Assembly (NCBI GenBank): GCA_963779495.1
Contig: CAVZYM010000004.1
Coordinates: 25,497 to 89,496, forward strand
Reading direction: 5' to 3'
DNA length: 64,000 nt
Source of the DNA: an uncultured Pseudomonadota bacterium
Lineage (GTDB): Bacteria > Myxococcota_A > Polyangia > Fen-1088
Below are positions 11,327-56,808 of this stretch, one piece after another. The notes beneath the pieces were generated by a model, which was not told the DNA's origin, ran no database searches, and was given only the letters and a program-made list of their open reading frames with translations. A program made the position numbers and the translations under genes. Numbering within the stretch: the stretch's first letter is position 1; every line of letters begins with the position of its first letter.

Positions 11327-11408
11327 ATCGTGTTGGGGGAGGACGAGCTCTGCTCGTCCGAGCCCGTCGCGGGAGGTTCGGAACCCGTCCGCGGGTTCTG
11401 AAGTCGAA
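11327..11408 (+). repeat. Two-hairpin intergenic repeat, copy 1 (diverged)
   Basis: ATCGTGTTGGGGGAG-GACGAGC tct GCTCGTCC-GAGCCCGTCGCGGGAGG..CGGAACCC gtccgc GGGTTCTGA..TCGA; aligns with the copies at 21512, 32237 and 56725. Confidence 0.8.
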
Positions 11409-11410
11409 GC

Positions 11411-12307
11411 TCAGCGCGCGAGCAGCGCGGCGACGTCGACCGCGCCGGCGAACACCGTCTGGGCGGGGCCGCGCATCCGGACGCCGCCGTAGTCCTTGGC
11501 GACGCTGATGTGGAGCGTGCCGCCGGGCAGGTGGACGGGCGTCTCACTGCCCGGGGCCAGCCGCTCCTCGAGGCCGGCGGCGACCGCCGTGGCGCAGGCG
11601 CCGGTGCCGCAGGCGAGGGTGATGCCGCAGCCGCGCTCCCAGACGACCAGGTCGATCTCGTTGCCGCGCACCCGCGCGAACTCGACGTTGGTGCGGTTGG
11701 GGAACCGGTCCGCGACCTCGAGCGCGGGACCGTAGGTCTCCGCCAGAGCCCGCAGATCCTCGTCGCCGTCGACGAAGATCACCGCGTGCGGGTTCCCCAT
11801 CGACACGCCGGTGAAACGGAACGTTCGGTCGCCGGCGGTGATCGCCTCGCGCAGCGCCCGGGTCTCTCCCGGCGGCGCGAGCGGGATCTCGGAGCGGGTG
11901 AACCGCGGGCGCCCCATGTCGACAGCGACGCTGGCGACGACTCCGTCCTTGGCTTCGGCCGCGCAGGCCAGCACGCCGGCGCCCGTCTCGATGCGCAGGG
12001 TGGGGCGGCGCATGTCCGGGTCGGACTCGTAGAGCACCTTGGCCACGCAGCGGATGCCGTTGCCGCACATCTCGGCCTCGCTGCCGTCGGCGTTGAGGAC
12101 GCGCATGCGGGCGTCGCCGACCTGGCTGGGCAGGATGGCCAGGATCCCGTCGCCGCCCACGCCGAAGCGCCGATCGCAGACCGCCCGGACCACCGCGGGA
12201 TCCTGGGGCGACGGGCCGCCGGCCTGCGCGCCGGGACGACCGGGGCGCAGATCGACCACGACGAAGTCGTTCCCTATCCCCTGGACCTTCGTGAACGGCA
12301 GCGCCAT
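11411..12307 (-). CDS. dapF: Diaminopimelate epimerase
   Basis: KVQGIGNDF, CDRRFGVGGDG, NADGSEAEMCGNGIRC, SMGNPHAV, NVEF, WERGCGITLACGTGACA. Confidence 0.97.
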   Translation of the reverse strand: MALPFTKVQGIGNDFVVVDLRPGRPGAQAGGPSPQDPAVVRAVCDRRFGVGGDGILAILPSQVGDARMRVLNADGSEAEMCGNGIRCVAKVLYESDPDMRRPTLRIETGAGVLACAAEAKDGVVASVAVDMGRPRFTRSEIPLAPPGETRALREAITAGDRTFRFTGVSMGNPHAVIFVDGDEDLRALAETYGPALEVADRFPNRTNVEFARVRGNEIDLVVWERGCGITLACGTGACATAVAAGLEERLAPGSETPVHLPGGTLHISVAKDYGGVRMRGPAQTVFAGAVDVAALLAR

Positions 12308-12322
12308 GACGCAGCCGAGAGT

Positions 12323-12934
12323 TTACTCGCTGGGAGCGGCCGGCGCAGGCGCAGCCGCAGGTGCGGCTCCTTCGGCCGGCGCTTCGGTCTTGGGGGCACG
12401 CTTGCGCTTGCGCGGCGCGGCGGGCGTCTCGGTCGCTCCGGCCCCTTCAGCCGGTTTTGCGGCCGGCTTTGCGGTCTCGCCCTTCGTCTCCCCCTTCGTG
12501 GCCTTGGTTGGCTTGGTGTCGGCCGGGGCAGGCGTGGTCGTGCCGCCGGGCGCCGCTGCCGGCGCCCCTGCGGGGGCCTCGGGCGGCTTGGCCTGGGGCG
12601 TCTGTGCCTTCTCGAGCTCGGTCTTGAGCTTGGCGGCGCGCTCCTCGTCGGCCTTCTTTTCGGTCGCCTTCTTCTCCGCCAGGCGCTGCAGGCGCTTGGA
12701 GTCCTGCTGGCTCGAGTAGTGGGCGAGGCCGAGCGAGGTGAGGAGGAAGATGACCGCGGTGATCGACGTCAGTCGGGTCAGGAAGTTTCCCGCGCCCGAG
12801 GAGCCGAATACCGTCTGACTGCCCCCGCCACCGAAGGCGATCCCCATGCCGCCGCCCTTACCGGCCTGCAGCAGCACGACCAGGATCAGGAACAGACAGA
12901 CCGCAATGTGAACAATCGTAAGGAATGTGATCAT
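12323..12934 (-). CDS. secG: Preprotein translocase SecG with long Ala/Pro/Lys-rich C-terminal tail
   Basis: LVVLLQAGKGGGMGIAFGGGGSQTVFGSSGAGNFLTRLT; position after tpiA. Confidence 0.9.
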   Translation of the reverse strand: MITFLTIVHIAVCLFLILVVLLQAGKGGGMGIAFGGGGSQTVFGSSGAGNFLTRLTSITAVIFLLTSLGLAHYSSQQDSKRLQRLAEKKATEKKADEERAAKLKTELEKAQTPQAKPPEAPAGAPAAAPGGTTTPAPADTKPTKATKGETKGETAKPAAKPAEGAGATETPAAPRKRKRAPKTEAPAEGAAPAAAPAPAAPSE

Positions 12935-13710
12935 GACGTCGAATCCGACTTTCTACCTGCTTGCACGAGGCGGACGAAAGTTTCTGCCACCAGCGACGCG
13001 CCGCCGACCAATCCGCCGTCGACGTCTTCCTCCGCCATCAGAGCGCGGACGTTGTCAGGTTTCATGCTTCCGCCGTAGAGGATACGCAACCGGGGCGCAA
13101 CCGCGGCAGCCCGCGCGGCGATCCGGGTGCGAATGAAACGATGCACCTCCTGCGCCTGGGCCGGGGTGGCGTTTCGCCCGGTCCCGATGGCCCATACCGG
13201 CTCGTAGGCGATCACCACCTTCTCGAGATCCGCATCGGTCATCTCGGCCACCGCGGCGTCGATCTGCGCCTGGATCCGCCCGAGGGTCTCGCCCGCGTCG
13301 CGCTCGGCCAACGTCTCGCCGACGCAGATGATCGGGGTGAGGCCGGCGCGCAGCGCGGCGCGCGCCTTCAGGTTGACCGCCGCGTCCAGCTCGCCGAACA
13401 GCTGCCGCCGCTCCGAGTGGCCGAGGATGACGTAGCGGCACCCGGCGTCGACGAGCTGCGCGGGGGCGACTTCACCCGTGAAGGCACCCTTGTCCTCCCA
13501 GAAGCAGTCCTGGGCCGCCAGCGCGACCGGACCGTCCTCGAGTCGCTTGGCGACGGCGTGCAGGGCGGTGAAGCTCGGCGCCACCGCGACGTCGACGTCG
13601 CGCCAGGTGGCGACGCCGTTACGCACCTCCGCCGCCAGCGTCAACGACTCGCTGATCGAGCCGTTCAGCTTCCAGTTACCGCAGAAAAGTGGGCGTCGTG
13701 CGCCAGACAT
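12931..13710 (-). CDS. tpiA: Triosephosphate isomerase
   Basis: [54 protein letters not shown]; start ATG 13710. Confidence 0.97.
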
Positions 13711-13747
13711 TCCATCAACCTTTCGTTCTACTTCGCGACCTTCGCGA

Positions 13748-55492: not shown

Positions 55493-55554
55493 CGCGCTCT
55501 GATCAGTTTTTTGGCGTTCTTATCGCCTCGTGGTTCGATGGCCATGGAGAGCCC

Positions 55555-55794
55555 ATGGATATTCGGACCATCTACTTGCCGTCGGGAGGGCTGGCTGAGA
55601 CGCACGGCGGGGTCGTGCGTCTCACGACCCCCAGCGCCGGGGCGCTGTCGGCGCACCGGGTGACTCGCCAGGAGATCCAGGACGCGACCGTCGCCGAGGC
55701 CGAGGCCGCGGTGGGGCGCCGCCTGGTCACCGGGCTGTGGTGGTTGACCACGGCGGGCGCCAAGACGACCGCCGTCCCGCTCGTCGAAGCGTAA
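55555..55794 (+). CDS. Small hypothetical protein (79 aa)
   Basis: GGAG RBS; fills the gap between DAHP synthase and purU. Confidence 0.5.
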   Translation: MDIRTIYLPSGGLAETHGGVVRLTTPSAGALSAHRVTRQEIQDATVAEAEAAVGRRLVTGLWWLTTAGAKTTAVPLVEA

Positions 55795-55831
55795 CGCGCA
55801 CACCGCTTCACCCGCGGCGCCTCGCCGGTCT

Positions 55832-56719
55832 ATGCTGGCGGGCACCGTGCCCGTCGCCCTTCCGTCTCCCGCGGTCGCCACCCTGCTCGTGAGCTGCCGC
55901 GATCGCACGGGGCTCGTCTCCGCGCTGTCCGAGTTCGTGTTCGACAACGGCGGCAATATCCTGGACGCCGATCAGCACGCCGAGGCGGAGACCGGGATGT
56001 TCTTCATGCGCCTCTGCTGGGATCTGGCCGGATTCAAGCTGGCGCGCACCGACATCGACGCCGCCCTGTCGCTGCTGGCCAAGCGGTTCGACCTCGGGTG
56101 GGAGGTGACGTTCTCCGACGTCCGCCCCCGCGTCGCCGTGTTCGCCAGCAAGACGCCCCACTGCCTCTACGATCTGCTGCTGGCCGATCAGCTGGGCGAG
56201 CTGGGGGGCGGCGAGCTCTGCGCGGTGATCTCCAACCACGACGATCTGCGCGCGGCCTCCGGGCACTTCGGCGTCCGCTTCGAGCACGTTCCCATGGACC
56301 CCGACAAGGTCGCCGCCGAGGCGGTGCAGCAGCGCCTGCTGAGTGAGCTGGGGGTCGACCTGATCGTGCTCGCCCGCTACATGCAGATCCTGTCGCCCGA
56401 TTTCGTCGCGCGCTGGCAGGGGCGGATCATCAACATCCACCACTCGTTCCTGCCGGCCTTCGTCGGCGCCAAGCCCTACCACCAGGCGAAGGCGCGCGGC
56501 GTGAAGGTGATCGGTGCGACAGCTCACTACGTCACCAGCGAGCTGGATCAGGGGCCGATCATCGAACAGGACGTCACCCGGGTCAGCCACCGAGAGGACG
56601 TTCCCGAGCTGATGCGCAAGGGGAGCGAGCTGGAGCGCCGGGTGCTCACCCGGGCGGTTCGCCTGCACCTCGAGCGGCGCGTCCTGGTCTCCGGAAATAG
56701 AACGATCGTCTTCGGGTAG
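55832..56719 (+). CDS. purU: Formyltetrahydrofolate deformylase
   Basis: ACT domain CRDRTGLV; HCLYDLL, VISNHDDL, VLARYMQILS, INIHHSFLPAFVGAKPYHQA, GATAHYVT, DQGPIIEQ. Confidence 0.96.
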   Translation: MLAGTVPVALPSPAVATLLVSCRDRTGLVSALSEFVFDNGGNILDADQHAEAETGMFFMRLCWDLAGFKLARTDIDAALSLLAKRFDLGWEVTFSDVRPRVAVFASKTPHCLYDLLLADQLGELGGGELCAVISNHDDLRAASGHFGVRFEHVPMDPDKVAAEAVQQRLLSELGVDLIVLARYMQILSPDFVARWQGRIINIHHSFLPAFVGAKPYHQAKARGVKVIGATAHYVTSELDQGPIIEQDVTRVSHREDVPELMRKGSELERRVLTRAVRLHLERRVLVSGNRTIVFG

Positions 56720-56724
56720 CGCCG

Positions 56725-56808
56725 ATCGCGTCGGGGGAGCGCGAGCTTTTTGCTTGCGCGAGCCCATCGCGGGGGGCGCGGGACCCTTTCAGGGTCCCGA
56801 ACTCGATC
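56725..56808 (+). repeat. Two-hairpin intergenic repeat, copy 4
   Basis: ATCGCGTCGGGGGA-GCGCGAGC ttttt GCTTGCGC-GAGCCCATCGCGGGGGGCGC-GGGACCC tttca GGGTCCC-GAACTCGATC. Confidence 0.9.

Follow-up and report, generated by a model that had tools for sequence, protein, structure and literature searches.

What is the hairpin-forming repeat that recurs at gene ends in an uncultured Polyangia bacterium, and how did it come to lie there? The question arises from a 64,000-nt stretch of a metagenome-assembled genome (MAG), hereafter the window, whose numbering gives all copy coordinates unless a contig is named. An initial annotation of this stretch described four copies of an ~80-nt structured repeat, all on the same strand and only between convergent genes, and proposed either a dispersed repeat resembling repetitive extragenic palindromes (REPs) or miniature inverted-repeat transposable elements (MITEs), or a strand-specific RNA motif of 3' untranslated regions (3'-UTRs). 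We find that the copies are probably a lineage-specific, non-autonomous, modular mobile DNA repeat of an uncultured Polyangia genus and family, akin to REPs, bacterial interspersed mosaic elements (BIMEs) and mycobacterial interspersed repetitive units (MIRUs), that multiplies to ~100 or more copies per genome. The repeat family is new; it is a familiar kind of bacterial "junk" repeat and not a device special to convergent genes.

A dispersed repeat family of uncultured Polyangia

The source assembly comprises 6.23 Mb in five contigs with 70% G+C. Iterated nhmmer searches recovered ~108 copies in this genome at E<1e-5, distributed over all five contigs and both strands, and the resemblance among the window copies is thus real and far beyond chance. 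The consensus of the nhmmer copies is GATCGCGTCGGGGGAGGGCGAGCTTTGCTCGTCCGAGCCCATCGCGGGAGGTTCGGAACCCTTTCAGGGTTCCGAATTCGAT. Within the window, three full copies and one copy of the second hairpin alone occupy the positions first assigned to them (Table 1).

We used a covariance model built from 70 copies to scan related genomes. All 24 congeners carried the repeat, with 22 to >116 copies each, as did 8 of 10 sampled genomes from elsewhere in the same Genome Taxonomy Database (GTDB) family and three genomes from two further families; ~100 other genomes of the class had no copies. We scanned 185,579 species genomes for the exact pattern, and every match was to a soil MAG carrying the label Polyangia, Myxococcales, Myxococcota or 'uncultured proteobacterium'; viral contigs gave no match. 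The comparison with Rfam that had been recommended likewise returned no described RNA family: no part of the window matched Rfam 15 at gathering thresholds, and copy 4 gave only chance-level matches at E values up to 10. Our literature search found no description of small repeats from Polyangia or other myxobacteria.

One genome of the same GTDB family (G092) has a single near-consensus copy (C131:36540-36617, locus L138; 92.8 bits) where relatives have tens. This lone copy could represent a recent transfer or a mis-binned contig.

Hairpin stems are maintained by compensatory change

Copies 1, 2 and 4 of the window each span ~80 nt, in which a purine-rich linker (CGCGGGRGG) joins hairpin 1 (H1) to hairpin 2 (H2) and a GAAnTnGA(T) tail comes last. 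H1 is built from outer CGCG/CGCG arms, a GGG/CCC helix, a 3x3 internal loop (GGA/GAG) and an 8-bp inner stem, and H2 has a stem of 9-10 bp. Every arm that had been quoted for these hairpins was found, namely GGACGAGC/GCTCGTCC, GCGCGGGC/GCCCGCGC and GCGCGAGC/GCTTGCGC for H1 and GGAACCC/GGGTTCY and GGGACCC/GGGTCCC for H2. In copy 1, the inner stem of H1 (GGACGAGC/GCTCGTCC) pairs 11341-11348 with 11352-11359 around a TCT loop. In copy 4, the H1 loop is 5 nt long and one pair is G.T; this copy folds at -58.5 kcal/mol (z -5.2). The H2-only copy is degenerate: it had no match to the H2 model at E<0.01, and its fold was no better than that of shuffled sequence (z -0.5).

Alignment of 70 distinct copies confirmed that the hairpins are conserved by compensatory change. 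Pairing in the three helices reaches 99, 97 and 90% of alignment cells and falls to 29-43% when the partners are slid. Doubly changed cells number 165, compared with 54±7 in shuffles, and changes on both sides were seen at 14 pairs; the H1 stem alone occurs as 32 different pairs among the 70 copies. Against these variable stems, the linker and a GC...GC hairpin tip are near-invariant. The GGGGGA...GAGCCC frame was originally called invariant but is not so genome-wide, where its middle pair covaries (GGG/CCC in 41 copies, GAG/CTC in 16 and GCG/CGC in 12). The G-A loop is unpaired in ~90% of copies and is replaced by Watson-Crick pairs in a few.

These results bear out the part of the initial proposal that saw a dispersed REP/MITE-like repeat with hairpins kept by compensatory change. 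They demonstrate that the hairpins matter, but covariation alone cannot separate RNA from single-stranded DNA. We propose that an agent that copies or retains the repeat recognises the folded hairpins, probably as single-stranded DNA. Many compensatory stem variants would then exist because only variants that keep pairing spread.

Copies favour gene ends in either orientation

We assigned gene context with our own codon-usage gene caller. Of 123 loci, 15 fell within called open reading frames (ORFs) or at their tails, leaving 108 outside ORF bodies. These 108 comprised 47 with convergent neighbours, 49 with neighbours in the same direction and 12 with divergent neighbours. Convergent loci were enriched (47/108, or 43.5%, vs 17.6% of intergenic regions; p=3e-10) and divergent loci were depleted (p=0.007). 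Exclusive placement between convergent genes is therefore a property of the window, whereas genome-wide the repeat is enriched there. Even within the window, our gene calls and Pfam assignments support convergent neighbours for copies 1, 2 and 4 but not for the H2-only copy, whose right-hand neighbour is a doubtful 69-aa ORF.

The common orientation also holds in the window only. Genome-wide, 58 copies are on the plus strand and 50 on the minus strand, and the replichore comparison recommended at the outset showed no bias of copy strand with GC skew (43:37 and 15:13); the four same-strand window copies are a chance run. Where both neighbouring genes are read in the same direction, antisense copies number 25 and sense copies 19. 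A stop codon adjoins the element's 5' end about as often as its 3' end (28 vs 30). Both results speak against the strand-specific 3'-UTR motif.

The median distance of a copy is 8 nt to a flanking stop codon and 70 nt to a flanking start codon. The small distance to stops arises because convergent spacers are naturally tiny in this genome: for those lacking the element, which belong to 844 of the 891 convergent pairs, the median length is 34 nt, and 340 of the 844 fall below 20 nt. With spacers this short, one insertion fills the gap, producing the pattern first noticed in the window. The apparent association with convergent genes is thus probably in the main a by-product of short spacers and of tolerance near stop codons, and a special convergent-transcription mechanism would not be needed.

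We suggest that position reflects a survival filter and not targeting of convergent genes, such that insertions just 3' of stop codons would be harmless and promoter regions would be avoided. Where a convergent spacer is only a few bases long, one element would fill it and touch both stop codons.

Insertion sites turn over between species

We located 156 elements in the loci of relatives. Both flanks map together in this genome for 62 of them, and only 10 of these 62 sites are occupied here; at shared sites, the copies are mostly of different subfamilies. Copies are gained and lost between species.

Copy 1 provides a clean filled and empty site. This copy is an insertion of 86 nt (about 11325-11410) that separates two stop codons exactly, while two soil contigs whose DapF is 87-88% identical retain the convergent pair of dapF and the GT2 glycosyltransferase gene with no element and either a 6-nt spacer or a 12-nt overlap. 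This pair reveals no target duplication beyond at most GC. Four congeners also lack copy 1, but synteny is broken downstream and the alignment is uninformative. Other filled/empty pairs include one in which the element separates the stop codon of an operon gene from the start codon of the next, in what resembles an ABC-transporter pair. Within-copy flank matches average 3.6 nt, compared with 2.8 nt in shuffled pairings, and the difference is driven by members of tandem arrays. At one locus (L042), ATGATCG occurs on both sides and overlaps the element's own GATCG end.

Coding sequence is occasionally invaded as well. In a 1658-aa repeat protein encoded outside the window, a copy is read in frame as 27 codons (FASGEDELRSSEPIAGGSEPVRGVRS; G000 C4:298226-298304, locus L128, where G000 is the source genome). 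This insert falls in a variable linker, and the congener orthologues are shorter there and lack it. Several other copies supply the final residues and stop codon of ORFs.

The element is modular

Separate models of the two hairpins identified 70 H1-H2 loci, 23 H1-only loci and 22 H2-only loci. Single units make up ~90% of loci, and ~8 loci form arrays with a period of ~80 nt, in the orders 1212, 21212, 22 and 11 (where 1 and 2 denote H1 and H2); relatives have 3-4 units where this genome has 0-1. Five loci carry a long form of ~115 nt (H1-H3-H2) in which a third hairpin, CCCCGYGCAGG..CCTGCGYGGGG, lies within the linker. At C5:2226582, unrelated sequence follows the same junction. This organization of variable palindromic units and conserved linkers, alone or clustered, is that of a BIME-like mosaic (PMC3184786).

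The near-invariance of linker and hairpin tip, set against variable stems, would suit scattered sites at which a host protein, such as a nucleoid-associated protein, gyrase or a recombinase, binds double-stranded or cruciform DNA. Placement without regard to orientation would suit such sites too, and there is precedent in the BIMEs of E. coli, which are IHF and gyrase sites (PMC3184786). The turnover of sites between species argues against fixed chromosomal landmarks, and copies are spread unevenly along the genome with no regular spacing. We consider such a role very unlikely.

Copies do not resemble intrinsic terminators

The stability and position of the hairpins raise the alternative that they form an RNA element kept by host selection, with the two hairpins acting as U-tract-less (bidirectional) terminators, as insulators of convergent transcripts or as blocks to 3' exonucleases. 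The enrichment 3' of stop codons and between convergent genes fits this alternative, as do the covariation-kept structure, the very stable folds on both strands and a consensus shared throughout a bacterial family. REPs of E. coli make upstream mRNA more stable, contribute to termination and, when ≤15 nt from the stop codon, cause ribosomes to stall (PMC5082802), and SPRITE repeats and the REPs of Pseudomonas syringae likewise favour convergent gene ends (PMC3184786). A folding strand had also been deduced from tolerated G-T wobbles on the plus strand. In the core, G.T mismatches do exceed A.C mismatches, 15 to 5 (p=0.04, with non-independent copies), a weak hint of one folding strand, but fold z-scores are similar for both strands, which both fold well, and the strand argument is therefore weak.

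We found no intrinsic terminator at the copies. The tail after H2 reads GAAnTnGAT and the opposite strand ends in ...CGACGCGAT, with no T-run in either direction. A terminator scan of 10500-22500 did not call copies 1 and 2, although it called a canonical intrinsic terminator at 14989-15010 on the minus strand, with an 8-bp all-G-C stem followed by T8; U-tract terminators are therefore in use in this 70% G+C genome. Orientation to transcription is random (19 sense vs 25 antisense), though on the complementary strand a C/T loop takes the place of the G-A loop. Furthermore, 844 of the 891 convergent pairs do without the element, most sites are not conserved between species, shared sites mostly hold different subfamilies, and copies also occur within ORFs and divergent regions. 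We thus regard a host-selected RNA element as unlikely, and random orientation, site turnover and the element-free convergent pairs together make it improbable that convergent transcription requires the element. The host may still feel secondary effects: once in place, an element would probably be included in transcripts as a stable 3' hairpin, and some copies may since have gained a use. With a median distance of 8 nt to the stop codon, ribosome stalling of the E. coli kind is a candidate effect.

A search for the mobilising enzyme

REPs are short, highly repeated, mostly extragenic imperfect palindromes (PMC3337134), a description that the present copies fit. They could be a REP or REPIN population mobilised by a REP-associated tyrosine transposase (RAYT), i.e., an IS200-like HUH enzyme that reads hairpins in single-stranded DNA. 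Palindromic, extragenic copies numbering ~100 would be expected of such a population, as would the clean empty site without target duplication. Lack of target duplication is typical of HUH single-strand transposition (IS200/IS605).

The genome does encode 15 closely related 230-aa IS200-like Y1_Tnp proteins with HUH (DHVHLIVEAD) and Tyr (YVLLNFRKH) motifs. All 15 genes lie outside the window, in keeping with the initial report of no transposase there, and our codon-usage gene caller rejects every one. Each follows a conserved 'cgcaacgc...gattagtgctcattcaac' leader, and some have a TAGCCGC...GCGGCTA hairpin on their 3' side. They are a multi-copy insertion sequence (IS) with its own conserved ends and have no relation to the 80-nt repeat. 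Every one is at least 2.4 kb from the nearest copy, and hence none is within 2 kb; a search for a RAYT/IS200-type HUH gene flanked by copies, one of the checks proposed initially, found no such gene, although a cognate RAYT is typically single-copy and flanked by its repeats (PMC3337134). In 14 of the 24 carrier congeners, with tens to >100 copies, there is no Y1_Tnp (PF01797) match.

The architecture of the repeat differs from that of a REPIN as well. Whereas a REPIN consists of two inverted REPs (PMC3337134), H1 (GGACGAGC..) and H2 (TTCGGAACCC..) are unrelated and occur in fixed order on one strand. The 5' flank has a GAT consensus and no GTAG head, and copies lack replichore bias. We therefore rejected a RAYT/IS200 mobiliser on the basis of unrelated ends, lack of adjacency and lack of co-occurrence with the repeat in congeners; this alternative is largely refuted and very improbable. 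Whatever enzyme mobilises the repeat would, on this evidence, not be of RAYT/IS200 type.

Several points weigh against reading the copies as mobile DNA. The sole sign of movement is that species differ in which sites are occupied, and loss or replacement through recombination could explain part of this. The searches made turned up neither a mobilising enzyme nor an autonomous parent, and the scan for an H1...ORF...H2 parent, which covered this genome only, drew on a MAG with a completeness score of 68%. MITEs are recognised by target-site duplications and terminal inverted repeats (PMC3184786); we saw no clear duplication, and the element ends, GATCGCGTCG... and ...CCGAAnTnGAT(C), share inverted sequence only over GAT(C). 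The repeat thus falls outside the definition of a MITE (PMC3184786), as it does that of a REPIN/RAYT system (PMC3337134). One consensus persists throughout the bacterial family, with a single-stranded linker that hardly varies, and host-level selection for a function could yield both; the weak G.T excess hints at one folding strand. Finally, gene context derives from a gene caller that covers only 75% of the genome.

A bolder account, which we think rather unlikely, is that a hairpin-reading system working without a RAYT, inverted ends or target duplication moves or maintains ~100 copies per genome across a Polyangia family, which would be a mechanism new for bacterial repeats. Alternatively or additionally, the tandem G-A loop and the GGGRGG linker might constitute a protein- or ribosome-binding RNA module, serving the host of this 70% G+C genome as a U-tract-less 3'-end element.

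Relation to known bacterial repeats

Among described families, the repeat is closest in kind to the REPs, BIMEs and REPINs of enterobacteria and pseudomonads. Like these, it is a short G+C-rich imperfect palindrome with ~100 or more extragenic copies, a mosaic of hairpin units with conserved linkers whose stems are kept by compensatory change. It is also sited after genes with a preference for convergent ends (a bias seen in P. syringae), avoids promoters, and shows no target duplication at the one clean empty site. It differs in lacking sequence relation or Rfam match, in being an 80-nt unit of two different hairpins on one strand as opposed to inverted REP doublets, in its internal tandem G-A loop, and in having no associated RAYT (absent from 14/24 carrier congeners).

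MIRUs (PMC3184786, citing Supply et al. 1997) share a host of high G+C content, a unit size of 40-100 bp, G+C-rich inverted repeats within the unit, occurrence as single copies or tandem arrays, whose copy number may here too differ between relatives, and a location between genes in which the ends touch flanking stop or start codons and sites are empty or filled in different species. Tetranucleotide direct repeats are reported at filled MIRU sites, whereas we saw none, and the copies described here are mostly single and between convergent genes and not inside operons; the sequences are unrelated.

The three-stem-loop REP of Bradyrhizobium japonicum, found in overlapping convergent 3'-UTRs (PMC5082802), and SPRITE of Streptococcus pneumoniae (PMC3184786) are similarly multi-hairpin elements of 3' regions with convergent bias, and our long form likewise has three hairpins. 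Those repeats belong to another phylum and were shown to be transcribed or have a terminator-like U-tract; the present one has no U-tract and is known from DNA alone, and its sequence relation to them was compared through Rfam only. BOX elements of S. pneumoniae (PMC3184786) are also modular with variable module numbers, and Rickettsia palindromic elements (RPE; PMC3184786) occasionally insert in frame into coding genes and fuse to ORF ends. Neither is related in sequence; only one clear internal in-frame case was found here, unlike RPE, and the movement of BOX has been attributed to an IS transposase, whereas we found no candidate for our repeat.

Polyangia myxobacteria are abundant in soil and mostly uncultured, and the repeat family can serve as a ready-made lineage marker for them. 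Its insertion polymorphisms offer a natural set for strain typing. The repeat is also a likely cause of assembly breaks and mis-called gene ends, as in the element-encoded ORF tails and the 27-residue insert. A REP-like population that persists without a RAYT bears on the copying of such repeats and on the reasons for their retention by hosts. With the covariance model, the missing partner gene can readily be sought by phyletic profiling.

Features and neighbouring sequences

Table 1 Coordinates of repeat copies, their hairpins and the Y1 transposase genes. Plain ranges are window positions; G000 entries are contig positions in the source genome.
Feature	Position	Strand	Description
Copy 1, full H1-H2 element	11327..11408	+	Fills the 89-nt gap from the GT2 glycosyltransferase TGA (+, ends 11321) to the dapF TGA (-, ends 11411)
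H1 domain of copy 1	11329..11371	+	Outer arms CGTG/CGCG, GGG/CCC, 3x3 G-A internal loop GGA/GAG
H2 of copy 1	11377..11402	+	10-bp stem TTCGGAACCC/GGGTTCTGAA with one G.T pair; GAAnTnGA tail next, no T-run
Copy 2, full H1-H2 element	21512..21590	+	Between an unassigned + ORF stop (ends 21505) and the M1-peptidase/HEAT gene stop (-, ends 21592)
Degenerate H2-only module	32237..32276	+	Linker CGCGGtGG plus GCGCGGGACCC..GGGTCGCG; directly 3' of a + ORF stop (ends 32236)
Copy 4, full H1-H2 element	56725..56808	+	Between the PurU-like formyltransferase stop (+, ends 56719) and the PNPOx-like gene stop (-, ends 56807)
Long-form copies	G000 C5:2374589, C5:850920, C2:450805, C4:928533, C4:1017835		Outside the window
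Y1 transposase genes, examples	G000 C5:2943239, C3:724402, C3:671575, C4:956239		Loci L001-L008

The H2-only module is adjoined by two minus-strand ORFs in different frames, at 32279-32488 (69 aa) and 32458-33237 (259 aa). This pair (32279-33237) may be one frameshifted or mis-assembled gene, and coding signal is weak across 32488-33345. An exact-protein look-up of the PNPOx-like neighbour of copy 4 gave no record. Downstream of copy 4, a cobalamin riboswitch (RF00174, 89 bits) lies at 58077-58295 on the plus strand, upstream of plus-strand genes that start at ~58376.

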